In this document: in pieces, positions 1 to 29,358 of the stretch
Layout of the letters: every line of letters begins with the position of its first letter
Position numbering within the stretch: the stretch's first letter is position 1
Virus record (IMG/VR): IMGVR_UViG_3300026224_000019
Span: 1-36,209 of that record
Source: a virus
Lineage: Duplodnaviria; Heunggongvirae; Uroviricota; Caudoviricetes
DNA: 36,209 bases
Direction: 5' to 3' (one strand)
Translations under genes and position numbers: made by a program
The notes under the pieces: generated by a model
Database searches by the model: none
What the model saw: only the letters and a program-made list of their open reading frames with translations
What the model was told of the DNA's origin: nothing

Positions 1-1119
1 TCAAATAACCAACTTAACCCATTCCTGACCTCGAGTATCGTTATAGCGATCGGTGGTTGCCTGGATTTTATGTCCTAGTAATGTTTTTGTATCGATACCC
101 TGTGCACGGTACAGCCGTTCTGATAGAGAGCGTTGTTCATGAAATGTTGGCGGTGTTTTTCCGGCTGGTGGAATTATTCCAGCCAGATCCCGCGCTTTGG
201 CAAAGTAATCGCTCAGGTTGTCTTTACTCATTGGTTTTGGTTGTTTCTGGTGCCGACTATGAATCAGGTATGGACTCAATATTTTGTCCCTGCATCCATT
301 AATCACTTCTTTTAGCGATATCCCGATGGCATCACAGCGTAGCGTAAGCGGTAACGCAAGACGCATTCCAGTTTTTCCCTGGGTAATATGCAGGTGATCG
401 TTCCACACATCTGAAAAACGCATGTGGCAAATATCATCACGGCGCTGGCCAGTAACAATCGCAAGAAGCATTGCGTTACGGATAAAGTGTTTTTCAGGCG
501 TTGCGTTGTAAATTTTTTGCCAGTCTTCCAGAGTGAGCCTGGCTCTGGTTACTTTAGGGATCGGTTTACGGGTAGCCTCCGGAGGATTCCATCCGGGAGG
601 GACTTCCCCTGCATGCTGTGCTTCTTTATAAATATCAACCCATAATCCGCGATTTACTCTCGCTGTGCTGACCATGTCTTTATCCAGCCACTCGTCCAGT
701 ATTAATGCAAAGTCTCTTACTTCCAGTTCTTTCAATGGGTGGTTTCCCAGACGGGAAACCAGGAATGCAGCCATTCGCGCTTTTTCTTTGTGGGTTGTAG
801 CTGCAATATCTCCATTTTTCAGCCGCGCGTCCTGTATTTTCAGATATCGATCAACCCATGCCTTTAATCTGATACCCCGACGTTTTGTTGCTGACGGGCT
901 TTCATCAATTTTGCGCATGAAATATTCGGCTTCTGCTGCAGCTATTCGCTGATTGGCTGTGGAAGCGATTCTTTCAGCTTTGCCTTTGTCTGTTCCGAGT
1001 CCGTGAAATTTTCCAGTCACAGGGTTTTTATACTGGTAGTAAACTCTGCCAGTTCTGCGATCAAACTTTTCGTAAAGACCGGCTACGTCAGTGCTGTTTT
1101 TTCGTGGCCTCGGTGACAT
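1..1119 (-). CDS. int: Tyrosine recombinase, lambda-family phage integrase (372 aa)
   Basis: Full ORF with stop at window position 1-3. C-terminal catalytic region resembles lambda Int (LAIVTGQRRDD, PPTFHEQRSLSERLY, LLGHK...TTDRY). Sits at the prophage edge next to an Xis-like gene. Confidence 0.9.
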   Translation of the reverse strand: MSPRPRKNSTDVAGLYEKFDRRTGRVYYQYKNPVTGKFHGLGTDKGKAERIASTANQRIAAAEAEYFMRKIDESPSATKRRGIRLKAWVDRYLKIQDARLKNGDIAATTHKEKARMAAFLVSRLGNHPLKELEVRDFALILDEWLDKDMVSTARVNRGLWVDIYKEAQHAGEVPPGWNPPEATRKPIPKVTRARLTLEDWQKIYNATPEKHFIRNAMLLAIVTGQRRDDICHMRFSDVWNDHLHITQGKTGMRLALPLTLRCDAIGISLKEVINGCRDKILSPYLIHSRHQKQPKPMSKDNLSDYFAKARDLAGIIPPAGKTPPTFHEQRSLSERLYRAQGIDTKTLLGHKIQATTDRYNDTRGQEWVKLVI

Positions 1120-1357
1120 GAGTTAAAATCTCCTTCAGTGCATCATCATCGCCAGTATGAATTTCCGGCGCAATTCCCGTTTCACCAGGTCCAACAAATA
1201 CTGCCCGGCGATCTATCAGCCAACGTCCACGAATTTTTTGTGGTCTTGGTACGATGTATCCAAGTTTTCCGTATTTCACCAGGGTAGTGTTTGTTATTGG
1301 GAGACTGAACCGTTTGGGTTTCCACTCATCGAGCGTTATCAGGTACTGTTCGCTCAT
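1088..1357 (-). CDS. xis: Excisionase, lambda Xis-like (about 89 aa)
   Basis: MSEQYLITLDEWKPKRF...VPRPQKIRGRWLIDRRAV parallels lambda Xis (MYLTLQEW...PPPVKDGREYLF). Start placed at the ATG with GGAG 8 nt upstream; the track start at 1366 is a GTG lying directly against that GGAG. Overlaps the int start by 32 nt. Confidence 0.7.
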   Translation of the reverse strand: MSEQYLITLDEWKPKRFSLPITNTTLVKYGKLGYIVPRPQKIRGRWLIDRRAVFVGPGETGIAPEIHTGDDDALKEILTHVTEATKKQH

Positions 1358-1418
1358 GGTTATCACTCCGGAACGCGCCAGTTGCAGAATACCAACTACA
1401 ACTGGCGACGGTTGAACA

Positions 1419-3899
1419 TTAAAAATCAGTCTGATTCGGGATCAGTTTTTGTATCGTGGCTGTAACGTATTTCGCCTGGTGACGGGCATCATCCAGCGCA
1501 TGGTGGCGCACGCCTTCAAATGGAATAACTGTTCTGGCATCGAAGCCGATAGTTTTTCCCAGTTCAACGATTGTACGTACATCGCGATCGTTGTAGTAAC
1601 GCCACGGGCAGGGGATGTTCAGGCGTTCGTACGAGGTTCGTAAAATAGTGTTGTCGAAAGTTGCACCATTGCCCCATACCTGAACGAATTTTTCATCTGA
1701 GTATTCGTTGATGAACTCCCGAAACCGCGAAAGGGCATCCTTCAGTTTTACCTGGTCTGTTAAAATGGCAGCTCTGGCTTCACTGGACTGCTTCAGCCAC
1801 CATTCGATGGTGCCACCGTCAGGAACAGCCCCTGTATTCATTGCGTCAGTCAGACTGATAACGATATAAAATACTGGCCCGATTTCCCCTGTTTGTGGGT
1901 CGAAGAAAACCGCACCAATAACCACGATGGGCGCATTGGCGTTGGTTCCCATTGTTTCAAGGTCGATCATCAGGTGGTACCACACTCTGCTGGTGGATGT
2001 GATAATGTGATGACCGTTCACCGCAATTAAGGGATCTGCCGTCTCGCCAGTTTTATTATCGCTGGCGTGGTCCTGAGCGCTGCCAGCATTCTTCTTGTGT
2101 GAATGTTCAGCGCCTTCCATTTCCTCCGGATCATCTTCCTGAACTTCAACCTGATACTCTTCATCGAATGTTTCCTGGTATGTTGCGTCGCCCATCACCG
2201 CGCCACAATCAGGGCAGTTGCCGCCGCCGGTTTGACCGCAGGCGGTGCAGACTTTTTCCGGTTCCTGTTGCGCTACTGGCTCAGGTTGTTTCGTTTCTGG
2301 CTCGTTTTGTAACGCATTTGGGCCGTTTTGTTCCGCTTTCTGGTCGTTCTGTTCCGTTTCTTGCTGGTTCTGATTCACTGAATCGCGGGTTTCAATCCCC
2401 TTCACCCATTTCGGATCATTCGGGTCGCTAATCCCTGCAACAAATTCACCACGTGATACAGCAAGCAACTTATCGGCGTCAGGCTGGCTGATATTGGCTG
2501 CCTGCATAATTTTGTTTACTTCGTCAGCGGTAACTTTTACCGGCTCTGGTTGTACGGTCGTGTCAGATGCACCAGTATTTTGTTGTGAACCTGAGTACGT
2601 GCCGTTTTTACGTGCGAAGTATTCCTCTTTTGTGATTTCCGTAGCTCCCAAAGCCAGCGCTTTTTCCAGACCAGAAAGTTTGTTTGCACGACCATATTTT
2701 TCGCCATCCTTATCGGTGAAAAGGAAGTAGAACGGCCCCTCACGCTCTACAGATGGTTCAGTTTCCAGCGTGCTTTCATTTTTTTGGGTATCAGATACTT
2801 CAGTTTCCACTGCATCAGTTTGTGCTGCTGACGGCTGGAGAATATCAGCAGTGCTCTGGTCTGTTTCTTCATCCTCAAACACGCCCTTTGTCGCCAGGTA
2901 TTCAGTGATGTATTTGTTCAGTGCCACGGGATCCTTGTGAATGTCGAGCGGACGCTCACGGACAAGACCAAAAATAGTCTGACGGTTGTAGCGAATGGCA
3001 TCAGGCTGTTTGCGCATTGATGCGGAAATGCGCTTCCAGTCTTCGCGGTCTTTGGCGATAACTTCATTTTCTGCCCAGCGAAGGATGTTACCGTCAATGC
3101 TTCCGGGGTCCGTATCACCAGGCCAGAGATAGCAGGCCAGCTCCCTGTCCAGCGCTTTCCATGTCTGCTTATATTCGCGACGAATGGCAGCAGTGGCAGG
3201 GTTGATTTTTTCTGCTGAGTTTTCAGTGTGCTGTCGGTTGACTCTGACGCGGGCAAGGTCAACAACAGACGTGTATTTTCCAGTCTCTTTGCGCTCTGCG
3301 TCCTGCCGTTTTTTCCAGTTACGTAATTCAGCCTGAATTTCGGGCCATTTGGCACTCGGCTTGCATTTGTGCTTAACCCATCCGATAGCGAACAGTTTGC
3401 GTTCCGGATACATAGCGTTAATTTCAGGCGTTTTCATCAATGCCTCAACGATATGCCCGTCGAATGTTGCCATGTCCTCCTGCAACAATTCCTGTGCACT
3501 AATCACCATATCAACGGTGATGTTTTCACATGTACCGAACTTAACCAGGACCGCGTTCTGTACTTCAAGGGACAGCTTGTCAAAATTGACGTTCATCGGA
3601 TCGGATTCTGGTTCGACCGGAATAAAGGAAGCGGATTCCTCATCCCAGCGGTTTTCCAGCATATATTCGGTATCCCAGGAGTCGATGGCAGGGCGGGGCA
3701 TGCCGGGTTTATCCTCGCAGACAAGAAATTTATAAGCGCAGTCCTGAGCAGCCGGATATTGCTCCAGGAATTGCCAGGTAAATTTGGCACGGGCGCGACG
3801 TTCGTCGCCGGCTTCAATGGCAGTGGCTACAGCGACTGCACCTTCTTCCTTTATTGCCTGTTCGTCCGGAATGGCGGCGCAAATAAAGACTTTACTCAT
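1419..3899 (-). CDS. Large prophage exonuclease (826 aa): C-terminal DnaQ-like 3'-5' exonuclease domain, N-terminal ~550 aa of unknown function with a Cys4 zinc-ribbon motif
   Basis: C-terminal MIDLETMGTNANAPIVVIGAVFFD ... HHALDDARHQAKY matches the DEDDh exonuclease motif pattern. CTACGQ...CPDCG zinc ribbon mid-protein. Occupies the recombination-gene position next to int/xis. Confidence 0.7.
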   Translation of the reverse strand: MSKVFICAAIPDEQAIKEEGAVAVATAIEAGDERRARAKFTWQFLEQYPAAQDCAYKFLVCEDKPGMPRPAIDSWDTEYMLENRWDEESASFIPVEPESDPMNVNFDKLSLEVQNAVLVKFGTCENITVDMVISAQELLQEDMATFDGHIVEALMKTPEINAMYPERKLFAIGWVKHKCKPSAKWPEIQAELRNWKKRQDAERKETGKYTSVVDLARVRVNRQHTENSAEKINPATAAIRREYKQTWKALDRELACYLWPGDTDPGSIDGNILRWAENEVIAKDREDWKRISASMRKQPDAIRYNRQTIFGLVRERPLDIHKDPVALNKYITEYLATKGVFEDEETDQSTADILQPSAAQTDAVETEVSDTQKNESTLETEPSVEREGPFYFLFTDKDGEKYGRANKLSGLEKALALGATEITKEEYFARKNGTYSGSQQNTGASDTTVQPEPVKVTADEVNKIMQAANISQPDADKLLAVSRGEFVAGISDPNDPKWVKGIETRDSVNQNQQETEQNDQKAEQNGPNALQNEPETKQPEPVAQQEPEKVCTACGQTGGGNCPDCGAVMGDATYQETFDEEYQVEVQEDDPEEMEGAEHSHKKNAGSAQDHASDNKTGETADPLIAVNGHHIITSTSRVWYHLMIDLETMGTNANAPIVVIGAVFFDPQTGEIGPVFYIVISLTDAMNTGAVPDGGTIEWWLKQSSEARAAILTDQVKLKDALSRFREFINEYSDEKFVQVWGNGATFDNTILRTSYERLNIPCPWRYYNDRDVRTIVELGKTIGFDARTVIPFEGVRHHALDDARHQAKYVTATIQKLIPNQTDF

Positions 3900-3990: not shown

Positions 3991-4185
3991 TCAGGATTTT
4001 GATGCAGGTGTTTCAGTAAAATTCTGGTGTATGATTTTTTCTACCGGATAACAGTTACCGGGAATTTTCTGTTCTTTCATTGCGGCAATACATTCCTCCT
4101 TGCTGTCATAAATACCCGTTACCATATCAACCGGTTCGCTGTTAGCCATAAAAACAAGCATGACCGAGGCCCACATTACACCCAT
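3991..4185 (-). CDS. Small membrane protein (64 aa), possibly YdfD-like
   Basis: Hydrophobic N-terminus (MGVMWASVMLVFMA). Lies immediately downstream of the DicB-like gene, the position of ydfD in Qin. The homology call is from memory only. Confidence 0.45.
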   Translation of the reverse strand: MGVMWASVMLVFMANSEPVDMVTGIYDSKEECIAAMKEQKIPGNCYPVEKIIHQNFTETPASKS

Positions 4186-4373
4186 GATTTTTTCTCCTGG
4201 AAAATGCCAAGTTTAAGAAGGGCGAGTCGGGAAAGCATGGAATTATCATTGAGAAGATAAGGTTCATATTTCCTCATATTAATGGCATCCTCAGTGAAGT
4301 CTTTATTGCTGAGCTGAATGCCAATATCAAAACAACCTTCAGATGTATTAACGTTTGGTAATAACGTTTCCAT
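4176..4373 (-). CDS. dicB: DicB-like cell-division inhibitor (65 aa)
   Basis: N-terminus METLLPNVNTSEGCFDIGIQLSN...FTEDAIN matches my recollection of E. coli DicB (MKTLLPNVNTSEGCFEIG...FTEDAINKRK). GAGGA RBS 8 nt upstream. Lies downstream of the DicF-like RNA as in Qin. Confidence 0.75.
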   Translation of the reverse strand: METLLPNVNTSEGCFDIGIQLSNKDFTEDAINMRKYEPYLLNDNSMLSRLALLKLGIFQEKKSWV

Positions 4374-4390: not shown

Positions 4391-4530
4391 TGAATTTTGT
4401 GATGCGGTGCCTGGTGCCTCCAGGTGACGTTAACCAGTTAACAATTAACGCCGGAGTATTTCACCCATAAGGTTGCTTGTTTTAACTGTTCCGCGTGCGC
4501 TGAGCCGCATTCACCGCATCACAAAATTCA
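4391..4530. repeat. Perfect 19-bp inverted repeat (TGAATTTTGTGATGCGGTG / CACCGCATCACAAAATTCA) flanking 102 bp; candidate RNA duplex / processing site
   Basis: Arms at 4391-4409 and 4512-4530 are exact reverse complements. Inner region holds nested palindromes (CCTGGTGCCTCCAGG, GTTAACCAGTTAAC). Confidence 0.8.
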
Positions 4531-4590
4531 CTTTAAAAAGGGCGGACATCAGCCAGCAATGAAACTGATGCCGCCAAAAGGTAATCAACA
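4531..4590 (-). ncRNA. dicF: DicF-like small RNA with intrinsic terminator
   Basis: Minus-strand sequence ...UUUUGGCGGCAUCAGUUUCAUUGCUGGCUGAUGUCCGCCCUUUUU resembles E. coli DicF as I remember it (UUUGGCGGUAUCAGUUUU...GCCGCCCUUUUU). GC stem (4540-4552 / 4565-4575) followed by a U-run. Located upstream of the dicB-like gene. The 5' end is approximate. Confidence 0.6.
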
Positions 4591-4915
4591 TGGGTTGTTG
4601 CAGCGGGGTTGTCACTCAGGCGTATGGTCAACCTGACAACCCGGTGTTATCTCGAGGAAAAGATAGCCTCGCCATACTTACCGCCGCGCCATTTCGCGGA
4701 TTGCCACAACCGGAAGCGCACGGTCGAAGATGCCGGTGGCACGCAACAGAGGGAGAAATAACTTCGCCGTGCGCTTTCGCGTTATGCCCTGACTTTTCAG
4801 GGATATATCCTTTCAGTAAACTGTCAGTGCCGGATTCTTATCCGTGTCCGGCGCACGACAACACGCTGTCACGTGTGGTCTCCATTCTCAACCAGTAACC
4901 TCAATGGAGGATAAA

Positions 4916-5158
4916 ATGCCAACAAAACTATGCCCAGCCTGTAATTCTTCGTCTGATTTCTCAGAGAAGAATGGTTATTATATTTTTGATTGCCCGAAAC
5001 ACGGTGTATTCCATATATCAAAACTTGATGGGATATTTGTGAAACCAAGTCAGTATCAGGCTGACAAGTTAAATAAAATTCTCAATGCCAAAAGAGCGCC
5101 AGGCTATACGGGACCTATAGAGGTTTTACCGCGTCCTCGTCTTGTGGAACTGGATTAA
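4916..5158 (+). CDS. Hypothetical zinc-ribbon protein (80 aa)
   Basis: ATG at 4916 preceded by GGAGG with 6-nt spacing. CPAC...CPKH motif. The only plus-strand gene in the leftward early region. Its 3' end overlaps the convergent 186-aa gene by 44 nt. Confidence 0.55.
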   Translation: MPTKLCPACNSSSDFSEKNGYYIFDCPKHGVFHISKLDGIFVKPSQYQADKLNKILNAKRAPGYTGPIEVLPRPRLVELD

Positions 5159-5675
5159 ACCAGTGCTCCTGAATCGCTCGTATTTTTACCCTCGGATGAT
5201 TGCCGGGGGTGATTATTAATTCTGGCGGACATGGTTCTCCATTATGACAAATTGCGCTATAAGTGAAATCAGCCAGAGCAGTGCCGGTCATTATTATTCC
5301 GAACTTATCAAGCAGCGAGAGCAAATCACGCAAACAGGAGTTATCAGTTTTTTCGTTATAAAATGAATCCCCTGATGCAGAGAGCATTTCACCTCGCTCT
5401 GCGATGCGTTTGACCATTTTCCAGAATTCTTTTTTTGAATACTTTTCCTCGACATAAAAACCCATCGCCGAGGCAATCCGCTTTGCAGCTTCTTCAGTAT
5501 CCTGGTTGTTTGTTACCGAAACAGAGTACAATCCGATAAACGCATCGCGCACATTACGAGCCATATTATCAGTGTCTTTTTTCGTTACCGATTCCAATGC
5601 AAGTTCGTTCAGGTGTTGACGGAGTGTCTGTGCTGCAATCTCCTGGATTGATAGTGGTAAATCTTTAAATTCCAT
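5115..5675 (-). CDS. Hypothetical protein (186 aa), leftward early operon
   Basis: Complete ORF; ATG 11 nt downstream of the YdfB-like stop. No motif recognised. Confidence 0.6.
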   Translation of the reverse strand: MEFKDLPLSIQEIAAQTLRQHLNELALESVTKKDTDNMARNVRDAFIGLYSVSVTNNQDTEEAAKRIASAMGFYVEEKYSKKEFWKMVKRIAERGEMLSASGDSFYNEKTDNSCLRDLLSLLDKFGIIMTGTALADFTYSAICHNGEPCPPELIITPGNHPRVKIRAIQEHWFNPVPQDEDAVKPL

Positions 5676-6165: not shown

Positions 6166-6573
6166 TTATTGATGTTTGTTACGTTTGCGAGCTTCTAGTA
6201 GCTCGGTGAATAGGCGATTAAAATTCTCAACGCGGGCACGGAGTTCGCTGATTTGTGCTTGCTGCTCTGATTTTGGAAGTGCGCGATACAATCGCAACAT
6301 CTCCAACTCATCTTCCGATAAGTCTAAGGCGCTGTTGAGTGCAACTGGTGGATCTGGTGTTTTATCCTCGTCACCAAACAGTATCCAAGTTGGTGAACAT
6401 TGCAATACCTCAGCCAGGCGATGCAAATTTTGCCCGCGCGGGGCTGTATGGTCGCTTTCCCATAGTGAAATTGATGAGCCAGATACGCCAGCAGCTTTGC
6501 TTAAATCGTTTTGACTTAAACCAACCTGTTTGCGTCTTTCTCTAATTCGTTGGCCTAAAGTTTTCTCGTTCAT
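6166..6573 (-). CDS. dicA: Prophage repressor, HTH XRE-family, DicA-like (135 aa from Met18 of the track ORF)
   Basis: GLSQNDLSKAAGVSGSSISLWE helix-turn-helix; VLQCSPTWILFGDEDK and MLRLYRALPKSEQ...RARVENFNRLFTELLEARKR match my recollection of E. coli DicA. Divergent from the Cro-like gene. Confidence 0.8.
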   Translation of the reverse strand: MNEKTLGQRIRERRKQVGLSQNDLSKAAGVSGSSISLWESDHTAPRGQNLHRLAEVLQCSPTWILFGDEDKTPDPPVALNSALDLSEDELEMLRLYRALPKSEQQAQISELRARVENFNRLFTELLEARKRNKHQ

Positions 6574-6594
6574 ATTTAGATATCTTAATAACCC

Positions 6595-6637
6595 TTGACT
6601 TGAGATTCCTTGAGTGATTACCATTGAGAAAACTCAA
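6595..6637 (+). promoter_or_regulatory. Candidate rightward early promoter/operator (pR/OR-like)
   Basis: TTGACT at 6595-6600; TACCAT at 6619-6624; palindromic operator TTGAGAAAACTCAA at 6624-6637; GGAGGGG RBS before the Cro-like ATG at 6651. Confidence 0.45.
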
Positions 6638-11524: not shown

Positions 11525-11814
11525 CTGGCCTGAAGCATTCACAACGGTAGGAATTGCGATGGCAGTGGCGCTGGTGGTGTATTCGATTTGCCGCTGGGGA
11601 TAAAAACGGTTTGCGGGAAAAAGGGAGTTAAGTAAAATTGCTGCGGGTGCTTGAGGCTATCTGTCTCAGGCATGAACACCAAAAGGCAGATAGAGAAAAG
11701 CCCCAGTTAACATTACGCGTCCTGCAAGACGCTTAACATTAATCTGAGGCCCAATCTATGTCTCACAAATGTAGGTTAGCCTCTTACGTGCCGAAAGGCA
11801 AGGAGAAGCAGGCT

Positions 11815-11970
11815 ATGAAGCAGCAAAAGGCGATGTTAATCGCCCTGATCGTCATCTGTTTAACCGTCATAGTGACGGCACTGGTAACGAGGAAAGACCT
11901 CTGCGAGGTACGAATCCGAACCGGCCAGACGGAGGTTGCTGTCTTCGTAGACTACGAATCTGAGAAGTAA
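11815..11970 (+). CDS. hokD: Hok/Gef-family type I toxin (51 aa), HokD-like
   Basis: MKQQKAMLIALIVICLTVIVTALVTRKDLCEVRIRTGQTEVAVF is the Hok signature (single TM, conserved Cys, RxxxxEV). AAGGAGAAG RBS. In-frame upstream extension from 11758 could be the mok-like leader frame. Confidence 0.8.
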   Translation: MKQQKAMLIALIVICLTVIVTALVTRKDLCEVRIRTGQTEVAVFVDYESEK

Positions 11971-13469: not shown

Positions 13470-13844
13470 ATGCGTATAGAGTTTGTTTTGCCTTACCCGC
13501 CGACGGTGAACACCTACTGGCGACGTCGTGGCAGTACATATTTTGTATCAAAAGCCGGTGAGCGTTATCGCCGTGATGTGGCGCTCATTGTTCGCCAGCA
13601 GCGGCTGAAATTAAACCTGTCCGGAAGGCTGGCGATAAAGATTATTGCAGAGCCACCGGATAAGCGCCGCCGTGACCTGGACAATATACTGAAAGCACCA
13701 CTGGATGCGCTGACGCATGCGGGACTGCTTATCGACGACGAGCAGTTTGATGAAATTAATATTGTGCGCGGACTGCCCGTTCCCGGTGGTCGGCTGGGCG
13801 TGAAGATTTACGAAATAATGCATGACGGGCAGGTCAAAAAATGA
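13470..13844 (+). CDS. rusA: Holliday junction resolvase RusA (124 aa)
   Basis: PYPPTVNTYWRRRG..., EPPDKRRRDLDNILKAPLDALTHAGLLIDDEQ matches RusA catalytic motifs (DRRRRDLDN, D-x-L). Confidence 0.85.
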   Translation: MRIEFVLPYPPTVNTYWRRRGSTYFVSKAGERYRRDVALIVRQQRLKLNLSGRLAIKIIAEPPDKRRRDLDNILKAPLDALTHAGLLIDDEQFDEINIVRGLPVPGGRLGVKIYEIMHDGQVKK

Positions 13845-17991: not shown

Positions 17992-18243
17992 CAGGCATTA
18001 CAGCAGCTCTTCAGCGAGGGGCTGCGATAATGTAGGTGTTGGAGTGTATGCAAATGATAATTGCTCCCATTTTCACGGGTCCTTCCTGGAATTTAGAACA
18101 CCGAGGGGATACGGATGCGCAGAAATCGCCAAATTTTTGCATTTTCATCGTTCATCACCACCACTGTAATTTATTGATAATGAAAGGTTAAAAAATAGCT
18201 GGTGTCGAAAATGTTTGTTTTTTGTTCATCACTGGAGGGGTAA

Positions 18244-18744
18244 GTGGATAAGGAATTGAAACACCTTGTTCTTAATGTCAGCCAGTTAGCTGCGCTGTCG
18301 GGTGTGCACCGACAGACTGTCGCATCAAGAATCAAAAATGTCCGAACAGCGGGTGGGCATGAGAGTAACCTCAAGCTGTATAAACTTACTGATATTCTGG
18401 CAGAGCTAATGAAGTTGCCACCGCCTGTCGCTGAAGGGGAAATGGATCCCCATGACCGAAAAGCCTGGTATCAGTCAGAACGGGAACGTCTGAAATTTGA
18501 ACAGGAGGTCGGAGAACTGATCCCTGCGTCTGATGTCGCCCGTGAATTTGCTGAAATGGCAAAGGCTATGGTGCAGGTTCTGGAAACTCTCCCCGATATT
18601 CTTGAACGCGATTGCGCTCTCGAGCCTTCGGCTGTCATGCGGGTGCAAAGCATTATTGATGATTTGCGTGACGAAATTGCGCGGCGGGTGGCAGATGACA
18701 GCAAACAGGAAGATACAGAGGAGGAAAATCAGGAGGACGAATAA
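18244..18744 (+). CDS. Terminase small subunit, Nu1-like (166 aa)
   Basis: N-terminal HTH (LNVSQLAALSGVHRQTVASRI) like lambda Nu1; acidic C-terminus; immediately precedes the terminase large subunit. Confidence 0.6.
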   Translation: MDKELKHLVLNVSQLAALSGVHRQTVASRIKNVRTAGGHESNLKLYKLTDILAELMKLPPPVAEGEMDPHDRKAWYQSERERLKFEQEVGELIPASDVAREFAEMAKAMVQVLETLPDILERDCALEPSAVMRVQSIIDDLRDEIARRVADDSKQEDTEEENQEDE

Positions 18745-20861
18745 TGCCTGTGCAGGCGACCGCCAGATCGTTGAAACTGGATACGGGCCAGTTAATTAAA
18801 GCGCCGCGCAGGATGCCTGTTGCCGAAGCGGTACAAAAATTTATGCGAGTCCCTACATCTGGTGGCAACTCTGTTCCGTGGGATCCGCTGGTTGCACCGT
18901 ATGTGATTGAACCCATGAACTGCCTGTCGTCCCGTGAGTTTGATGCGGTTGTTTTTGTTGGCCCTGCCCGTACGGGCAAGACTAACGGCCTGATTGATGG
19001 CTGGGTGGTTTATAACATTGTTTGCGATCCGTCAGACTTTTTGCTGGTGCAGATGACGCAGGATAAGGCGCAGGAGCACTCCAAAAAGCGCCTGGCAAGA
19101 ACATTTCGTTGCAGTCCGGAGGTCAGAAAACGCCTCAGTCCACGCCGCAACGATAACAACGTTCATGACAAATATTTTCTGTCAGGCAGCTTTCTGAAAA
19201 TCGGCTGGCCCTCCATCAATGTCATGTCATCCTCTGATTTTAAATGTGTGGCGCTGACTGATTACGACCGATTTCCTGAAGATATCGATGGCGAAGGTGA
19301 TGGTTTCTCCCTGGCTTCAAAACGTACCACCACATTTATGTCAGCTGGTATGACGCTGGTGGAGAGTTCTCCCGGGCGTGAAATCACAAACAGCAAATGG
19401 CGCAGAACGTCACCGCATGAAGCCCCGCCCACCACGGGGATCCTTTCTCTGTATAACCGTGGCGATCGTCGTCGCTGGTACTGGCCTTGTCCGGATTGCG
19501 GTGATTATTTCCAGCCATCGATGGAGGCTATGACGGGGTATCGTGACAATCCTGATCCTGTAAAAGCCAGTGAAGCGGCTCATATATTATGCCCTCATTG
19601 TGGCAACCGAATCACCGCAGACATGAAACGTGAACTGAATGGTCGCGGCGTCTGGTTGCGTGAAGGTGAGCAGATTGACAGAGAAGGGAATGTTACCGGA
19701 ACGCCACGTCATTCAAGGATAGCCAGCTTCTGGATGGAAGGCCCCGCTGCAGCCTATCAGACCTGGGCGCAACTGGTTTACAAACTACTGACTGCTGAGC
19801 AGGAATATGAAGCCACAGGCAGTGAGGAAACACTGAAGGCGGTGATTAACACCGACTGGGGATTGCCTTATTTGCCTCGTTCCGCCATGGAGTTGCGCAG
19901 TGCAGATGTTCTGATGCAGCGGGCTGAGGATTACGGTAAGCGCCTGGTACCGCCGAAAGTGCGTTTTCTTATTGCGGCTGTGGACGTGCAGGGCGGGAAG
20001 AACCGACGGTTTGTGGTGCAGATTATTGGCTATGGCGAGGACGGCGAACGCTGGCTGGTGGACCGTTATAACATCCGACAGTCATTGCGTTGCGATGAAA
20101 ATGGCGAAGCATTACCTGTGCATCCCGGAGCTTACCCTGAAGACTGGCAGTTGCTGGTCACCGATGTACTGGAGAAAACGTATCCGCTCCAGTCCGATCC
20201 GGCCCGCAGAATGCCTGTACTGGCAATGGCGGTGGACAGTGGTGGTGAGGACGGGGTGACGGATAACGCCTATAAATTCTGGCGAAAATGTCGTCAGGAT
20301 GGACTGGGGCGACGGGTTTTTCTGGTAAAGGGAGACAGCACGAAACGCCAGAAAATTATTACCATCACACACCCGGATAATACCGGGCGAAGCGATCGCC
20401 GTGCGGATGCTCAGGGGAAGGTGCCGGTATATCTCCTGCAGACAGATCTGCTGAAAGATCAACTAAGCAATAACCTGCAACGTGAAATGCCCGGACCGGG
20501 CTACATTCATTTTCCTGACTGGCTAGGGGAGTGGTTTTATGAAGAGTTGACCTATGAGGAACGTGGTGCTGACGGGAAATGGCGCAAGCCGGGAAAAGGG
20601 AATAACGAAGCGTTTGACCTTTTTTGCTATGCCCATGCCGTCGCCATTCTGCGTGGCTATGAAAAAATCCGTGACTGGAGCAACCCTCCCCAGTGGGCAA
20701 GAGGGCAGGATGCTGACGCGGGGACTTCGGCAGACAGACGTTCTTCCGACACAGTGGACAAGAAAAACGTTGTCGGAAGAGATGAGCGGCAAAAAGCAGC
20801 GTCGCCGGAAGCGTTATCCGGAAACTGGTTATCACTACCCCGAAACGGAGGATGGTTGTGA
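18744..20861 (+). CDS. Terminase large subunit, lambda GpA family (705 aa)
   Basis: Walker A VFVGPARTGKT; CPDCGDY...CPHCG zinc ribbon; size and order as lambda A. Confidence 0.9.
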   Translation: MPVQATARSLKLDTGQLIKAPRRMPVAEAVQKFMRVPTSGGNSVPWDPLVAPYVIEPMNCLSSREFDAVVFVGPARTGKTNGLIDGWVVYNIVCDPSDFLLVQMTQDKAQEHSKKRLARTFRCSPEVRKRLSPRRNDNNVHDKYFLSGSFLKIGWPSINVMSSSDFKCVALTDYDRFPEDIDGEGDGFSLASKRTTTFMSAGMTLVESSPGREITNSKWRRTSPHEAPPTTGILSLYNRGDRRRWYWPCPDCGDYFQPSMEAMTGYRDNPDPVKASEAAHILCPHCGNRITADMKRELNGRGVWLREGEQIDREGNVTGTPRHSRIASFWMEGPAAAYQTWAQLVYKLLTAEQEYEATGSEETLKAVINTDWGLPYLPRSAMELRSADVLMQRAEDYGKRLVPPKVRFLIAAVDVQGGKNRRFVVQIIGYGEDGERWLVDRYNIRQSLRCDENGEALPVHPGAYPEDWQLLVTDVLEKTYPLQSDPARRMPVLAMAVDSGGEDGVTDNAYKFWRKCRQDGLGRRVFLVKGDSTKRQKIITITHPDNTGRSDRRADAQGKVPVYLLQTDLLKDQLSNNLQREMPGPGYIHFPDWLGEWFYEELTYEERGADGKWRKPGKGNNEAFDLFCYAHAVAILRGYEKIRDWSNPPQWARGQDADAGTSADRRSSDTVDKKNVVGRDERQKAASPEALSGNWLSLPRNGGWL

Positions 20862-21076
20862 AAAAAGATGAGATTTTCCAGATGCTGGTTATCGTGCGAC
20901 AGGCATACAGGGATTCCCTGGATGGTAAAAGTGTGTCTTTTACCGGGGTGAATGGCAGGGCGATCACCAACCATGATCCTGTTGCATTACGCAGGGAGCT
21001 TGAATACTGGGAAAAACGCTGGGCGGCGGCCTGCCAGCCCACAAGGAAACCGTACAAACTCGCCCGTTTCTCCTGA
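20858..21076 (+). CDS. Head-tail joining protein, gpW-like (72 aa)
   Basis: Small ORF between terminase and portal as in lambda W. GTG start has GGAGG at proper spacing; the track ATG at 20852 abuts the RBS. Confidence 0.5.
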   Translation: MKKDEIFQMLVIVRQAYRDSLDGKSVSFTGVNGRAITNHDPVALRRELEYWEKRWAAACQPTRKPYKLARFS

Positions 21077-21084
21077 GGTTTTTT

Positions 21085-22596
21085 ATGGGTTTTTTTGATA
21101 AAGCACTTGGCGCAATTGCGCCAGGGTGGGCAGTTTCGCGCGCCAGAAACAAAATACTGCTGAGAGCTTATGAGGCGGCGCAGCCTTCACGCCTGAATAA
21201 GGCGCGGCGCGAGAGCCGTTCTGCCGATACAGCGGTTTTTTCTGCCGGTACCTCGTTAAGGGAGCAGGCCAGGGCGCTGGATGAAGATCACGATATCGTG
21301 ATTGGTCTGCTGGATAAGCTGGAAGAGCGGGTTATTGGTGCGCAGGGGATCCAGGTCGAACCACAACCACTGAGAAGCGATGGCACCCTGCATGAATCGC
21401 TGGCAGAGCAGATCTCGGCATTGTGGTCTGAATGGTCTGTTCGCCCTGAGGTCACGGGGATGTTCACCCGCCCGGAGGCCGAACGGATGGCATTGCGATC
21501 TGCTTTGCGTGATGGCGAGATGTTCGTACAACTGGTGCGTGGTCCTGTCGCCGGTCTGAATCATTCCACTGTGGTGCCATTATCACTGGAACTTCTCGAA
21601 GCAGATTTTGTTCCGGTCAGTCTGAACACGAACGCGGGTCAGCAAGTCCGCCAGGGCATTATTCTTAACAACTGGGGGCGGCCTGTAGGGTATCGGGTTT
21701 ATAAATACCATCCTGCAAATATGCGTGGATTCAGCGCCGATCTCAAAACTGTTCACGCAGACAACATGCTTCATCTGGCGATGCGGAAACGGCTTCATCA
21801 GGTGAGAGGTGTCAGCCTGTTACATGGTGTGATTCGCCGGATTGCTGATCTGAAAGATTATGAAGAATCAGAGCGTGTGGCTGCCCGTATTGCTGCCGCG
21901 CTGGGTTTCTACATTAAGCGTGGTGATGCCGCCAGCTTTCCGACGGATAACGACTGGACACCCACAGAACAAAAACCCCGGTACTTTGATATTTCGCCGG
22001 GCATGATTTTTGACGAACTGGCCCCCGGTGAAGATCTGGGGATGGTGGAGTCGAATCGTCCGAATGTTCATCTTTATGAATTCCGGAACGGGCAGTTGCG
22101 TGCTGTGGCTGCCGGAACCCGTGGCAGTTATTCCAGTATTGCCCGTGACTATAACGGCTCCTACAGTTCGCAGCGTCAGGAGCTGGTGGAAGGTTACGAA
22201 GGCTACGGGGTTTTACAGCAGTGGTTTGTCGGTCAGTACAGCCGCCCGGTGTACCGGGCATGGCTGGAGCAGGCGATACCTTTTCTTGAAATTCCTCCTG
22301 ATGTGGATATGTCCACGCTTTTCAATGCCACTTATCTTGGCCCGGTGATGCCGTGGATTGATCCGGTGAAGGAGGCTGCAGCATGGCGGGCCATTCTTCG
22401 CGGTGGTGCCGGGACGGAGGCCGAGTGGATACGTGCCCGTGGGCAGTCACCGCAGGAGGTCAAACGTCAGCGACTGCGTGAAACTGAATTTAACCGGGAA
22501 AACGGGCTGGTGTTCGATTCTGACGCCGCTAACGATAAAGGAGTGATCCCTGATGCAGCAAATGATAAACCCGCGTCTTCGCGGGACGATGATTAA
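21085..22596 (+). CDS. Portal protein, lambda gpB family (503 aa)
   Basis: Size, position and N-terminus MGFFDKALGAIAPGW typical of lambda-family portal proteins. Confidence 0.85.
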   Translation: MGFFDKALGAIAPGWAVSRARNKILLRAYEAAQPSRLNKARRESRSADTAVFSAGTSLREQARALDEDHDIVIGLLDKLEERVIGAQGIQVEPQPLRSDGTLHESLAEQISALWSEWSVRPEVTGMFTRPEAERMALRSALRDGEMFVQLVRGPVAGLNHSTVVPLSLELLEADFVPVSLNTNAGQQVRQGIILNNWGRPVGYRVYKYHPANMRGFSADLKTVHADNMLHLAMRKRLHQVRGVSLLHGVIRRIADLKDYEESERVAARIAAALGFYIKRGDAASFPTDNDWTPTEQKPRYFDISPGMIFDELAPGEDLGMVESNRPNVHLYEFRNGQLRAVAAGTRGSYSSIARDYNGSYSSQRQELVEGYEGYGVLQQWFVGQYSRPVYRAWLEQAIPFLEIPPDVDMSTLFNATYLGPVMPWIDPVKEAAAWRAILRGGAGTEAEWIRARGQSPQEVKRQRLRETEFNRENGLVFDSDAANDKGVIPDAANDKPASSRDDD

Positions 22597-24643
22597 TCCC
22601 CGCGCCAGCCTTGCGGGGGTGGATGCCGCTAATGGTCAGTGCTGGTATGAAATCCGTGCACAGACTGCCGGGCGGGTGGAAATTTACCTCTATGACGTGA
22701 TTGGCGGATGGGGCATCACCGCGCAGCAGTTTATTGCTGACTGTAAGGATGCGGGGGTGTTTGAGGCCAGCGCTATTGATCTGCATATCCACAGCCCGGG
22801 CGGTGATGTGATGCAGGGGTTTGCCATCTTTAACACGCTGTCACGGCTGAAAGCGAAGGTGGATATCTGGGTGGATGGTGTTGCAGCCAGCATGGCCTCC
22901 ATGATTGTCTGCCTGCCAGGCGCCACAGTGCATATGCCTGAAAATTCCTGGCTGATGGTGCACAAGCCGTGGGGCGGGATCGCCGGTGATTCCGATGATA
23001 TGCGTGATTATGCTGACTGGCTGGATCGCAACGAGGCGCTGATGCTGTCAGCCTACATGAATAAAACCGGACTCGGGCAGGAGGAGCTGGAAGCCATGCT
23101 GAAAGCAGAAACCTGGCTGAACGGTGCTGAAGCCGTGGAAAAAGGCTTCGCTGATACGCTTGAACCTGAATTACAGGCTGCGGCCTGTGTGAACCAAAAT
23201 AAACTGAAGGATTACCATAATATGCCAGAACAGATTAACGCGCTTTTTGCTCCACGTGCAGAAACGACAAACGGACAGCCGCAGGAGCCGAAAGCAACCC
23301 CGCAAAATGCGCAACAGATCGCTGCTCAGCAGGCACCATCAACCGGAAATGTGGATATCAGCGCAATTGCTTCGCAGGTTCAGCAACAACTGATGGCAGC
23401 CAATGCGGAACGTGTGCAGGCTGTAACCGCAGTTTTTGCCTCTTTCCCGTCTTATGCCGCACTGAAAGCGGAGTGTCTGAACGACATGACCTGTACGGAA
23501 GCACAGGCCCGTGAAAAACTGTTGCAGGCGCTGGCAGCCGGAACGACACCAAGTGCAGGCCCGGGCGCTGTTCATATTCATGCCGGGAACGGTAATCTGG
23601 TCGGCGATTCCATTCGTGCGGCTGTGATGGCACGCGCCGGATATGCCGAAGCAGAAAAAGATAATGCTTATAACGGTTTTACACTGCGCGAGCTGGCGCG
23701 TGCTTCGCTGGTTGATCGCGGTATCGGTATCTCCGGTCATTCCGCACCGATGGCGATGGTGGGGCTGGCATTTACTCACAGCAGCAGCGATTTCGGCAAT
23801 ATCCTGATGGATGTGGCTCATAAAGCTGCGTTGCAGGGCTGGGATGATGCCAGCGAAAATTTTGACAAATGGACCCGCAAGGGAACGCTGACTGATTTTA
23901 AAACCGCGCATCGTGTCGGGCTGGAAACTTTCCCGACGCTACGAAAAGTATTGCCGGGGGCTGAATATAAATATGTGACCCTGAAAGATCGTGGCGAACC
24001 GATTGCACTGGCGACTTATGGCGAATTGTTCAGCATTGATCGCCAGACCATCATCAATGATGACCTGGATATGCTGACCCGTATTCCGATGGCAATGGGG
24101 GCGGCAGCGCGGACTACCGTGGGTGATCTGGTCTGGGCCGTGCTGACCAGCAATCCGAAAATGTCGGATGGCAAACCGCTGTTCCATGCAGATCATGGCA
24201 ACCTGGTGACTGCAGATTTGTCTATTGAGGGGCTGGATTCCGGGCGTAAAGCCATGCTGCTCCAGAAATCGGGTGACCGCCGCCTGAACATTCGTCCTGC
24301 TTTTATGTTGACGCCTGTTGCCATTGAGTCGCGTGCCAATCAGTTGATTAAGTCTGCCAGCGTGCCCGGTGCAGATGCGAACAGCGGCATTATTAACCCG
24401 ATTCAGAATTTTGCCACGGTTCTGTCAGAGGCCCGCCTTGATGACAGCAGCCCGACGGATTATTACCTGGTGGCAGCGCAGGGGCGTGACACGATTGAAG
24501 TGGCTTACCTCGACGGTATTGATACGCCGTATCTGGAGCAGCAACAGGGCTTTACGGTTGATGGTGCAGCATTCAAGGTGCGCATTGATGCCGGAGTGGC
24601 ACCGCTTGACTGGCGTGGCATGGTCAAAGTGAAAAAACAATAA
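22553..24643 (+). CDS. Prohead protease (ClpP/S14-like) fused to major capsid protein (696 aa)
   Basis: N-terminal ClpP-like region (IHSPGGDVMQGFAIFNTL, MVHKPWGG); C-terminal ~350 aa has capsid-like character; no separate major capsid gene follows. AAGGAG RBS before ATG 22553. Confidence 0.7.
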   Translation: MQQMINPRLRGTMINPRASLAGVDAANGQCWYEIRAQTAGRVEIYLYDVIGGWGITAQQFIADCKDAGVFEASAIDLHIHSPGGDVMQGFAIFNTLSRLKAKVDIWVDGVAASMASMIVCLPGATVHMPENSWLMVHKPWGGIAGDSDDMRDYADWLDRNEALMLSAYMNKTGLGQEELEAMLKAETWLNGAEAVEKGFADTLEPELQAAACVNQNKLKDYHNMPEQINALFAPRAETTNGQPQEPKATPQNAQQIAAQQAPSTGNVDISAIASQVQQQLMAANAERVQAVTAVFASFPSYAALKAECLNDMTCTEAQAREKLLQALAAGTTPSAGPGAVHIHAGNGNLVGDSIRAAVMARAGYAEAEKDNAYNGFTLRELARASLVDRGIGISGHSAPMAMVGLAFTHSSSDFGNILMDVAHKAALQGWDDASENFDKWTRKGTLTDFKTAHRVGLETFPTLRKVLPGAEYKYVTLKDRGEPIALATYGELFSIDRQTIINDDLDMLTRIPMAMGAAARTTVGDLVWAVLTSNPKMSDGKPLFHADHGNLVTADLSIEGLDSGRKAMLLQKSGDRRLNIRPAFMLTPVAIESRANQLIKSASVPGADANSGIINPIQNFATVLSEARLDDSSPTDYYLVAAQGRDTIEVAYLDGIDTPYLEQQQGFTVDGAAFKVRIDAGVAPLDWRGMVKVKKQ

Positions 24644-24645
24644 AT

Positions 24646-24671
24646 AACCGCCGGACAGGGCGGTTTTTTTT
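24646..24671 (+). terminator. Intrinsic terminator after the capsid gene
   Basis: AACCGCC-GGACAG-GGCGGTT followed by TTTTTTTT. Confidence 0.6.
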
Positions 24672-24716
24672 ATGGCTGAAGCGGCGCACTTTGCGCCGCA
24701 TTTACCGGAGAAAAAA

Positions 24717-25046
24717 ATGTCAAAAAATTTTGTTCAGGACGGAAAAAACGTCGACTGGGTGAACGGGACCGGGAAGGCGGTGTCATCTGGCGATCTGGTT
24801 GTTCAGGATAATCTTGTTGGTGTTGCTCACGCTGATATTCCGGACGGGGATGTGGGCATTCTGCATACGGTGGGGGTTTTCTCTTTACCTAAAGAGGCAG
24901 AGGCGCTAACGCAAGGCAAGCTGGTGTATTTCAAAGCGGATACGGCAACACTGACCGCAACGAAATCAGGTAATACGCTGGTGGGAACAGTATGGGCATC
25001 GGCTGAAGCCGGAGATGCCTGTGTTTGTGTGCGTCTGGGGTACTGA
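24717..25046 (+). CDS. Small head protein, putative decoration/cement protein (DUF2190-like, 109 aa)
   Basis: Position right after the capsid gene; Gly/Val-rich beta-type sequence; GGAG RBS. Confidence 0.45.
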   Translation: MSKNFVQDGKNVDWVNGTGKAVSSGDLVVQDNLVGVAHADIPDGDVGILHTVGVFSLPKEAEALTQGKLVYFKADTATLTATKSGNTLVGTVWASAEAGDACVCVRLGY

Positions 25047-25402
25047 TGCATCGATTTCATAAACGGCTGATGCGGGCAGATGCCCGCATTTCCCGGCTTT
25101 TTTCCGAGGAGTGTCCGGCGATACTGTCTATTGGCAGCGAGCGTCGCCCTGTTATGGTGATTTTTGAATCTCCGGATGCGCCGGTTCGTGTTCCGGGTGG
25201 TGGAGAAATTAACGATCAGGCTCCGGCATTCAGCGCACTGACAGAGGATATTAAGGGGCTCAGCACAAACTGCACAGTGGAGCTGAACCACGAATTTTAC
25301 CGCGTCACGCATATTGGTGCGGATGAAATGGGGCGTACACGCGTAACGCTCGGGCGTGGACGGGGGACGTCATTACCGACCATCGAATGGAGTAAAAAAT
25401 AA
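25046..25402 (+). CDS. Hypothetical head completion / connector protein (118 aa)
   Basis: Start overlaps the upstream stop (TGATG); position between head and tail modules only. Confidence 0.35.
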   Translation: MHRFHKRLMRADARISRLFSEECPAILSIGSERRPVMVIFESPDAPVRVPGGGEINDQAPAFSALTEDIKGLSTNCTVELNHEFYRVTHIGADEMGRTRVTLGRGRGTSLPTIEWSKK

Positions 25403-25423
25403 ACTTCATAAGGAGATATCGCA

Positions 25424-26107
25424 ATGGCGCGGGCATCACGCATCCGGCGAAATCTGTTGTTTGATATCGACGTCGAAGAATTGCGGGATATTGCGGCGCA
25501 GGCTGGTGCAACGCAGCACCAGTTCCGTCTGGCCTATTCCCGCGCACTGAAGCGAACGGCATCAAAAATGCGCATGAAGGCGCTTGCGGAACTGAAAACC
25601 GGCCTGGCTCCCCGCAAAATGGACACACTGGACAGGCGGCTTTTTTCCACCCGCATTACCCGGGGTAATGCTATGGATGAAGCCCGTCTCTGGTTTGGCC
25701 TTAATGCGATCAAGATAAAAGATTTGCGCGGACGCATTCGTGGGCAACGTGTCCGGCGTCATGATCTCCGTGATCCGGTAACCGGGCGGTTTATCAAAGA
25801 GAACCGTGTCCGGCGACGTCGCCGCAAAGCCAGCGATCCCGTTTTTGAACCCAACGGTTCGTTTTTATCTCCTGCCGCGTATGAAAACGGGCTGGTGATA
25901 CGTAGTCGCAAAGAGAACCGACGAACAATCATCATCAAAAATCCTGAAACCGGGCGTGTCCGGGAGGCTGAAGCTGGTATTTATGCCAGCACGATGGATT
26001 ATGTTGAAGATGTGGCTTTTGCGGAGTGCCTGGAAATTTTTATGAAAGAGTTCGAATCGGACATCCGGCGACGCGCGAAGTACGGCATTACCGTGGCCCC
26101 CCGATAA
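25424..26107 (+). CDS. Hypothetical basic protein (227 aa), possible neck/virion morphogenesis protein
   Basis: AAGGAG RBS; Arg-rich; assigned by position only. Confidence 0.4.
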   Translation: MARASRIRRNLLFDIDVEELRDIAAQAGATQHQFRLAYSRALKRTASKMRMKALAELKTGLAPRKMDTLDRRLFSTRITRGNAMDEARLWFGLNAIKIKDLRGRIRGQRVRRHDLRDPVTGRFIKENRVRRRRRKASDPVFEPNGSFLSPAAYENGLVIRSRKENRRTIIIKNPETGRVREAEAGIYASTMDYVEDVAFAECLEIFMKEFESDIRRRAKYGITVAPR

Positions 26108-26121
26108 AATGTGAGGACGCA

Positions 26122-26691
26122 ATGGCTGAACCCTTATGCATGGCATCCTGGCACGCTGCTGTGCTGGATGCCCTGAAAAAACTTAAATGGATCAATGATG
26201 CGGACACCTATCCGGAACGGGTCACGCAACTGGTCACTCCGGCGGTGTTTCTGGCGGTGGATGGCTGGGATGCGAAAAGCAATGCAGACGGGCAGATGAC
26301 GGTGGTGTTGTCTGCCGCGCTGTGGGTACTGGTTGACCGTGCCGGTGAGTCGGATAAAGAAAAAAAAGAAGAACGCAGGGCGATAAAGCCGGATATTTTT
26401 ATCCGTTCGGCGGCCGCCGCGTTGTCGCACTGGCTCGACGGGCAGACGTTCGGACTGGCAAATGTGGAGCCTGCCATTTTTATATCAGCGGACGCAGATG
26501 AAACCGATCCGCGTCTGGATGATTATCTGGTCTGGCAGATTTCATTTAACCAGACGGTGACGTTTGGTATGGATCCCTTTGCCACGGATAACCTGCCGTT
26601 ACAGCGGGCCTGGCTGGGCGTGGCACCGGAGATCGGGCGACAGCATGTGGATGATTATCGGCTGATTTTTGAGGGAAAGCCACGTGAATGA
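26122..26691 (+). CDS. Hypothetical tail completion / virion morphogenesis protein (189 aa)
   Basis: GAGGA RBS; lies immediately upstream of gpV, where P2-like phages carry tail completion genes. Confidence 0.4.
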   Translation: MAEPLCMASWHAAVLDALKKLKWINDADTYPERVTQLVTPAVFLAVDGWDAKSNADGQMTVVLSAALWVLVDRAGESDKEKKEERRAIKPDIFIRSAAAALSHWLDGQTFGLANVEPAIFISADADETDPRLDDYLVWQISFNQTVTFGMDPFATDNLPLQRAWLGVAPEIGRQHVDDYRLIFEGKPRE

Positions 26692-27304: not shown

Positions 27305-27325
27305 CCTGCTGCGGCAGGTTTTTTT
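27305..27325 (+). terminator. Hairpin plus T-run between gpV and the sheath gene
   Basis: CCTGC-TGCG-GCAGG followed by TTTTTTT. Confidence 0.5.
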
Positions 27326-27342
27326 ATGTCCGGAGAATGCAA

Positions 27343-29306: not shown

Positions 29307-29324
29307 GCACTGATTAACGCATAA

Positions 29325-29346
29325 CGGCCTGCGGGCCGTTTTTTTT
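29325..29346 (+). terminator. Intrinsic terminator after the tail tube gene
   Basis: CGGCC-TGCG-GGCCG followed by TTTTTTTT, then AAGGAG RBS of the next gene. Confidence 0.6.
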
Positions 29347-29358
29347 AAGGAGCAGATT

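Follow-up and report, generated by a model that had tools for sequence, protein, structure and literature searches.

Which recombination functions remain to a lambdoid prophage when a single large protein occupies the place of its recombination (Rec) module? The question is raised by a stretch of 36,209 nucleotides from a virus of the Caudoviricetes (positions 1 to 36,209 of IMG/VR virus record IMGVR_UViG_3300026224_000019; this whole stretch is referred to as the window). Its early-left operon, which belongs to a lambdoid prophage, carries one intact open reading frame (ORF) of 826 amino acids (aa) with an ATG start, located between xis and the ydfD and dicB genes (1419-3899, minus strand). 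The product is matched end to end by phrog_2082 ('exonuclease') and is a mosaic of a YdfE-type N-terminus, a RecE-type central scaffold and a predicted DEDDh 3'-5' exonuclease. An earlier note on this sequence had described one large protein in the Rec-module slot, with a zinc ribbon, a nuclease confined to its C-terminal end and no accompanying annealase gene. This description of the layout was confirmed, whereas the type of the nuclease and the N-terminal homologies had been misjudged. The best joint explanation of the observations, towards which we lean on balance, is an intact, selected, modular gene that represents a nuclease-only Rec module of the type known from phage Tritos and leaves strand exchange to the host.

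The nuclease is contained in the last ~185 aa of the protein. Residues 642-814 (1458-1976, minus strand) were assigned to PF16473, the Rv2179c-like or Rv2179c/DexA family, with a score of 229.1 bits against a cut-off of 27 (E 3.9e-68; profile positions 2-175 of 177), and this was the sole Pfam nuclease family detected besides a weak match to PF00929 (RNase_T). The catalytic DEDDh set is complete and consists of D646 and E648 (DxE), D749 (aligned to DexA D119) and H799-x4-D804. The only relatives of solved structure found by sequence were 8KEL and 8KEN (E 5.7e-9 over aa 642-780), the structures of the DexA protein of phage T4 and of a mutant form of it (PMC12153337). As judged from these similarities, the nuclease is a DEDDh 3'-5' exonuclease of the DnaQ superfamily with T4 DexA as its closest solved relative, and not a 5'-3' enzyme of the RecE/Exo type; the activity itself is a predicted one. 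With a nuclease of this type, the module is therefore not simply a recE gene that has lost recT. The domain shares its fold family (PF16473) and the full complement of catalytic residues with both DexA and its homologue in E. coli, EcD. These two are stand-alone proteins (227 aa for DexA), whereas the domain studied here makes up the C-terminal fifth of 826 aa and lacks the DexA-specific loops, which appear as gaps in the alignment. We infer that its substrate would be DNA rather than RNA.

The frequent database label 'exodeoxyribonuclease VIII' is wrong for this protein, because the defining parts of RecE are absent and the RecE equivalog model stays far under its cut-off. The PD-(D/E)XK domain of RecE (RecE ~600-866; DUF3799) was found in the 826-aa protein neither by phmmer nor by Pfam, and the same phmmer query did match relatives. 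Pfam likewise gave no match to the N-terminal domain PF06630 (Exonuc_VIII), and RecE residues 1-290 had no counterpart in the protein. The equivalog NF007259 scored 270.8 bits, compared with the 1269 required, and only its positions 243-603 (of 877) were aligned, to aa 219-626. Names currently given by the Prokaryotic Genome Annotation Pipeline (PGAP) are 'exonuclease' or '3'-5' exonuclease', and database proteins with 96% identity are called exonuclease or 3'-5' exoribonuclease. The correction concerns a known, ordinary and very common gene of E. coli prophages: out of 5426 complete E. coli genomes, 3968 gave a match to the DNA of the DEDDh domain. Genes of this kind often bear the label 'exodeoxyribonuclease VIII' and yet are not RecE. 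Recombineering of the RecET type is not to be expected, because the nuclease is of opposite polarity and RecT is missing.

The N-terminal part, which the earlier note had called uncharacterised, proved to be composed of known segments. Its first 255 residues are 84% identical to YdfE, the product of a pseudogene in the Qin prophage of E. coli K-12. This gene likewise has dicB and ydfD as neighbours; ydfE is interrupted by IS2 after ~255 codons, whereas the gene in the window is complete. Within this part, aa 1-206 (3282-3899, minus strand) form an alpha/beta domain followed by a helical one; in homologues from the databases, two recently defined Pfam families, PF27430 (YdfE_N) and PF27432 (YdfE_C), are assigned. 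A helical domain follows at aa 247-343 (2871-3161, minus strand), which matches most members of the family and is common to nearly all of them, including RecE (~294-350). The small beta-hairpin/helix domain at aa 388-432 (2604-2738, minus strand) is the most conserved element of the scaffold, with an invariant GPFY motif and invariant G399, R404, N406, K407, E421 and I422 in alignment A1. The RecE-type central segment with its acidic linkers comprises aa 456-640 (1980-2534, minus strand) and ends at the nuclease junction; it is about 80% identical to RecE 445-591 and shows an 86% nucleotide match to recE of Rac-SA53. It includes a C4 zinc ribbon (aa 548-578; 2166-2258, minus strand) with the spacing C551-x2-C554-x7-C562-x2-C565, which is conserved in RecE and 100% conserved with respect to phage Tritos.

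The relationship to RecE extends over aa 279-625, which were aligned by BLASTP to Rac RecE 294-591 (E 1e-62); the last ~150 aa of this match, including the zinc ribbon, are ~80% identical. The alignment ends at aa 625, equivalent to RecE 591 and thus just ahead of the RecE nuclease domain. Such a match, which is also seen with NF007259 (positions 243-603), is the finding that the earlier note had named in advance as speaking against its proposal. The Rac RecE/RecT system resembles the module in the window in its early-left position near xis and int and in having a C-terminal nuclease (~200-260 aa) behind a long scaffold, and the centre of RecE with its C4 zinc ribbon is homologous to aa 279-625. 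It differs in that the 826-aa protein has neither a PD-(D/E)XK domain nor PF06630, that its nuclease belongs to the class of opposite polarity (DEDDh, 3'-5') and that it has no RecT partner.

An AlphaFold2 model of aa 1-460 (90 sequences) reached a mean predicted local distance difference test (pLDDT) score of 76, with confident domains at about 1-206 and 247-340 (both pLDDT ~90) and at 390-432 (~80), separated by disordered linkers. This layout agrees with the ratio of nonsynonymous to synonymous substitution rates (dN/dS) determined against the Tritos homologue, which was 0.10 for aa 1-206, 0.39 for aa 247-340, 0.03 for aa 390-432 and 0.15 for both aa 471-507 and the nuclease; no change was present in the zinc ribbon, and values of about 1 were obtained only in the linkers predicted to be disordered. 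Because dN/dS is low outside the linkers, the 826-aa ORF is a selected gene rather than a chance ORF. The scaffold (aa 1-640) is thus made up of non-catalytic parts, namely the YdfE-type domains, the helical domain, the small beta/alpha domain and the RecE-type zinc-ribbon segment, joined by fast-evolving acidic linkers. Sequence searches of the PDB with the family profiles A1 and A3 gave no match, and no functional work on ydfE, or on Rv2179c in connection with phages, was found in the literature. The non-catalytic region of RecE has been described as 'of unknown function' (PMC11611040), and this part of ~600 residues has gone without an assigned function for decades.

The absence of an annealase was examined both around the gene and within the protein. 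Since xis follows the 826-aa gene after 52 bp, there is no space for a recT-like gene downstream. Upstream, a gap of 91 bp separates the gene from two small ORFs (3991-4185 and 4176-4373), which the earlier note had pointed out as a possible location of an annealase; this was ruled out by their Pfam assignments to YdfD (DUF1482) and DicB. Scans with Pfam, PHROG and NCBIfam detected no annealase families in the other early-left ORFs. The early-right operon, whose proteins include YdaT, O-like, P-like, Ead/Ea22, HNH, DUF968, RusA and Q, yielded no annealase either, and PGAP had annotated none in a complete prophage that is 95% identical. The flanks of the gene were also searched in 80 IMG/VR contigs that carry a full-length homologue. 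No ORF resembling RecT, Beta, the RecE nuclease or Rad52 was found there; YdfD occurred in 78 contigs and DicB in 77. Within the 826-aa protein, Pfam found no single-strand annealing protein (SSAP) family. A Foldseek search of the PDB with the model of aa 1-460 returned a best E value of 0.89 and no SSAP, and hhalign comparisons with RecT, lambda Beta and RAD52 yielded E values of at least 0.15 over at most 37 columns. While the fold search covered aa 1-460, aa 461-640 match the non-catalytic region of RecE. With no match from either Foldseek or hhalign, the suggestion that the N-terminal region substitutes for an annealase has no backing. In summary, the searches of the protein and of the prophage detected neither an annealase nor any of the known inhibitors of RecBCD.

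A comparison of homologues places the protein in a family of exchangeable parts. A first homologue search returned only proteins that were at least 92% identical, and a search of 1.84 billion representative proteins gave only 247 related clusters. Segment mapping showed that N- and C-terminal parts combine freely among the long members. Whereas the protein in the window joins a YdfE-type N-terminus to a DEDDh domain, others combine the DEDDh domain with the RecE N-terminus of the K-12 type (P0128) or with both N-termini in tandem (P0123), or fuse a YdfE-type N-terminus to the PD-(D/E)XK nuclease of RecE (P0131, P0383). Many proteins from Enterobacter, Klebsiella, Citrobacter and Pantoea carry a YdfE-type scaffold with a C-terminus that has no Pfam match. 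Further C-terminal variants are found on the same scaffold (P0353, 555 aa; P0125, P0238); one of them contains HTH_ParB (PF17762), and another, of ~260 aa, matches only phrog_26058, a family of unknown function.

In this family, the DEDDh domain takes the exact place that the PD-(D/E)XK 5'-3' nuclease holds in Rac RecE. The junction can be followed at the DNA level: the window and the corresponding locus of strain PSJ-22 (L001) are identical in codons 1-640, whereas their nuclease domains differ (dS 0.2, 93.5% aa identity). Because the identity stops exactly at the boundary between scaffold and nuclease, this junction is a real and recent recombination breakpoint. Two alleles of the nuclease domain are in circulation, and the window carries the rarer one, which is 71% identical to the nuclease domain of Tritos. 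The neighbouring genes vary with the nuclease. For PD-(D/E)XK versions, the next gene is recT (K-12 Rac and a Pantoea locus), while DEDDh versions run directly into xis and int (the window, PSJ-22, phage Tritos, strain P393-F10 and a Rac-like locus) and were never seen with an annealase in the loci examined. The partner-gene pattern thus follows the fused effector.

The use of host recombination is suggested by the distribution of Chi sites (GCTGGTGG). The window contains 12 of them, compared with 1.59 +/- 1.33 expected, and none of 100 shuffled sequences reached this number. Eleven sites are co-oriented on the plus strand, which is the strand of the late genes (at 164, 1989, 11570, 12452, 12509, 15457, 15565, 19355, 20054, 22182 and 24977, spanning 164-24984), and a single one has the opposite orientation (13094, minus strand). 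Chi sites showed the same polarity in 80 related viral loci, with 197 on one strand against 8 on the other. Apart from the 826-aa protein, a single recombination protein was identified in the window, the Holliday-junction resolvase RusA (13470-13844, plus strand; PF05866, E 1e-15).

Lambdoid Rec modules have been classified by Zheng et al. (Genome Res 2025; PMC12315714). Their class B includes a 'Tritos' type, which comprises four Chi-rich phages with a nuclease but without a single-strand annealing protein (SAP), a single-strand-binding protein (SSB) or an anti-RecBCD protein, with top/bottom Chi counts ranging from 7/2 to 21/6. The same study reports DnaQ-like 3'-5' nucleases in Rec modules. 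It also argues that Chi sites accumulate in phages that have neither a recombination system of their own nor an inhibitor of RecBCD, and that such phages use host RecBCD. The window fits a Tritos-type, nuclease-only Rec module with regard to both gene set and Chi sites: it lacks SAP, SSB and anti-RecBCD genes and is rich in top-strand Chi (11 top/1 bottom). Tritos itself, the published prototype of this class, possesses a full-length homologue with 84% nucleotide identity and the same gene order, int-xis-exo-ydfD-dicB-dicF. In contrast to Tritos, the window has a late region of the myovirus type (tail sheath, baseplate). A nuclease-only arrangement of this kind is thus already published.

Based on these results, the following sequence of events seems the most likely. 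During lytic growth, the protein would be translated from the early-left transcript, and its C-terminal domain would remove nucleotides from the 3' ends of linear phage DNA. Its most likely role may be the trimming of 3' tails to blunt ends onto which RecBCD could load, a proposal that builds on the generally known requirements of RecBCD for DNA ends. The scaffold might act as a delivery or tethering platform that brings the fused effector to the ends of linear DNA or to a partner, and would not itself be an annealase. Strand exchange could then be accomplished by host RecBCD, Chi and RecA, with RusA resolving the junctions. Since the phage DNA has many co-oriented Chi sites, the RecBCD-Chi-RecA pathway could promote the recombination needed for growth.

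Several points weigh against this explanation. According to Zheng et al., 3'-5' exonucleases of the DnaQ type usually inhibit homologous recombination (PMC12315714), and for this reason a pro-recombination role in end blunting is speculative. EcD has been reported as a defence nuclease against T4 (PMC12153337). The case for a DNA substrate consists solely of the exchange with a DNA nuclease and of the observation that, among the solved DEDDh enzymes, DexA is the most similar one. The exclusion of annealases of the Erf and Sak4 types relies on Pfam and PGAP only and covers the window and one relative; the scan of 80 contigs was directed at the RecT, Beta, RecE-nuclease and Rad52-like types. Finally, an ORF of 186 aa at the ydfC position (5115-5675, minus strand) is the only sizeable protein in the Rec-module region without an assignment; it matched PHROG families of unknown function only, and no match was found in Pfam or the PDB.

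A nuclease related to DexA could also serve in defence against superinfection, in that a DexA-like 'HREX' enzyme would destroy incoming modified phage DNA, e.g. DNA containing 5-hydroxymethylcytosine, and protect the host of the prophage. The domain belongs to the DexA family, and EcD is reported to degrade T4 DNA and, if supplied on a plasmid, to protect cells (PMC12153337). Moreover, the sequence MIDLET at M644 resembles the start of EcD (MIDTET, taken from a primer sequence), the aromatic residue Y769 is aligned with DexA W152, and most E. coli genomes contain the gene. However, it follows dicB and ydfD in an operon that is repressed and, because of this position, should be silent in the lysogen. 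D721 is retained at the position of the tetramer-forming D90 of DexA, where EcD has an alanine; EcD is apparently a stand-alone protein of ~185 aa rather than a fusion of 826 aa; PADLOC matched no defence model beyond a weak generic DEDDh match; and the domain stands exactly where the RecE nuclease is found on the common scaffold, which suggests a role in recombination or replication. We therefore regard a defence function as unlikely. A slightly smaller probability is given to an RNA-directed activity, in which the domain would act as a 3'-5' exoribonuclease like Rv2179c on early-left transcripts, small RNAs (sRNAs) of the DicF type or host RNA. This idea derives mainly from the name of the family, since PF16473 is called after an exoribonuclease and many NCBI homologues are named '3'-5' exoribonuclease'; in addition, the NCBIfam scan gave a weak match to oligoribonuclease, and a DicF-like sRNA is encoded in the same operon. 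It is opposed by the finding that the solved relatives identified by sequence are limited to the T4 DNA exonuclease and its mutant, by the replacement of a DNA exonuclease on a scaffold common to DNA recombination proteins, and by the location of the gene in the position of a Rec module (PMC12315714).

Two other explanations concern the scaffold rather than the substrate. The N-terminal ~600 aa might supply the missing annealase, or a Gam-like function, and so turn the protein into a single-polypeptide recombinase. Full-length RecE, which shares aa 279-625, boosts linear-linear recombination beyond its nuclease domain, as stated in PMC11611040 with reference to Fu 2012; the scaffold is also under purifying selection, and the family is tied to annealing by relatives in which the scaffold is fused to a probable Rad52-like domain. 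In those relatives, however, the annealase-like domain is added at the C-terminus, outside the scaffold, and RecE-type proteins with the same scaffold still need a neighbouring RecT. The structural model of aa 1-460 matched no solved annealase or Gam protein and the hhalign comparisons gave nothing, while a 3'-5' nuclease leaves 5' overhangs, which are not the substrate for annealing of the Red/RecET type. An N-terminal annealase is thus very improbable. The same holds, to an even greater degree, for the notion that the ORF is a functionless remnant of a decaying RecET module from which recT and the RecE nuclease have been lost. It could draw on the truncated ydfE of K-12 Qin, which is cut by IS2, and on the description of one- and two-gene modules as 'somewhat suspect' in PMC12315714. 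Yet the ORF is intact in the plaque-forming phages Tritos, Evi, mEp460 and HannyBb and in all 80 of the viral contigs, it was matched in well over half of the E. coli genomes (3968/5426), most of its folded domains show dN/dS values of 0.03-0.15, and its catalytic residues are intact.

Beyond the two nucleases, the scaffold appears to carry a third effector, which is probably an annealase domain with a Rad52 fold. The consensus of the C-termini without a Pfam assignment contains 'KKSLTDAIKKALSLLGF' as well as 'RATExFGPxGxGWG' and resembles the DNA-binding core of RAD52. When compared by hhalign with a RAD52 sequence verified against the PDB, the region was aligned to RAD52 residues 30-161 or 46-161 with E values of 0.03-0.05, at the edge of a control with shuffled sequences. 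For stand-alone phage homologues, Rad52_Rad22 was the top Pfam match, just below threshold (Vibrio phage D79, E 0.0012, 19.3 vs 20.3 bits; LKA5, E 0.12). Foldseek did not find Rad52 for this C-terminal domain. The lines of evidence for a Rad52-like domain are convergent but individually weak.

Proteins that combine the scaffold with the Rad52-like domain look like the 'RecE-2' proteins, which, according to Zheng et al., are related to RecE but lack a nuclease domain and have an unknown role (PMC12315714). RecE-2 proteins such as P0133 of Enterobacter and gp07 of Pectobacterium phage ZF40 share the YdfE_N/YdfE_C scaffold and the GPFY domain with the 826-aa protein (40-50% identity over aa 1-460), and their genes occupy the same slot in the operon. 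They differ from it in that the C-terminus consists of the probable Rad52-fold domain and a coiled coil, with no nuclease, and that the next gene encodes a Sipho_Gp157 protein. The Rad52-like domain also occurs as a stand-alone protein of ~250 aa in many Vibrio and Pseudomonas phages (phrog_2489 and phrog_7838; 173 phage records), for example in Pseudomonas phage LKA5 (gp019; L009:3989-4744) and Vibrio phage D79 (L010:3989-4759). Such proteins are often labelled 'exonuclease', a name apparently propagated from RecE-like fusions. In Vibrio phage D79, the gene adjoins one for a Mu Gam-like protein.

It is possible, if rather doubtful at present, that the scaffold of the YdfE/RecE type serves as a general platform with swappable effectors and brings a 5'-3' nuclease, a 3'-5' nuclease or a Rad52-fold annealase to the same place, perhaps a DNA end or a host partner. 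If this were so, the RecE-2 proteins would be unrecognised scaffold-fused annealases, and phages such as ZF40, which are counted among those without a SAP, would have one; the DEDDh version in the window would blunt the ends of phage DNA and in this way supply them to host RecBCD and Chi. The results suggest that some lambdoid phages scored as annealase-free may hold a fused Rad52-like one. With one scaffold, one fixed junction and three effectors that each have their own partner genes, the question of scaffold function becomes more tractable.

The genes around the 826-aa ORF are arranged in the order int, xis, 826-aa ORF, ydfD, dicB, DicF-like sRNA, several small ORFs and a DicA-type repressor (6166-6624). 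The integrase gene (1-1119, minus strand) is annotated as such in L001, which is 97% identical, and the excisionase gene xis lies directly downstream of the exonuclease gene (1088-1366, minus strand; PF07825, phrog_629). The YdfD-like DUF1482 protein (3991-4185, minus strand; PF07358, E 4e-19) corresponds to ydfD of K-12, which is annotated there as a 'lysis protein', and the cell-division inhibitor DicB (4176-4373, minus strand) was identified by PF05358 (E 1.8e-32) and NF049927. Upstream of dicB, a divergent DicF-like sRNA (4540-4590, minus strand) was matched over the full length of the model with 34.1 bits, against an Rfam gathering score of 48 (E 1.7e-5), and an STnc100-like match (4396-4528, minus strand) likewise remained below the gathering score. 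An ORF of 104 aa on the opposite strand (4844-5158, plus strand) shows a weak zinc-ribbon match and overlaps the end of the 186-aa ORF.

Further features were observed outside this region. A sok antitoxin RNA (11645-11820, plus strand; RF01794, 120 bits) indicates a module of the hok/sok type in the early-right region. The late region (~18200-36209) is myovirus-like, with genes for tail sheath, tail tube and baseplate, and is joined to the lambdoid early region of the DicA/DicB type. A related prophage (L011) encodes a fusion of a ClpP-like protease with the major capsid protein and, in strain P393-F10, adjoins ompW.

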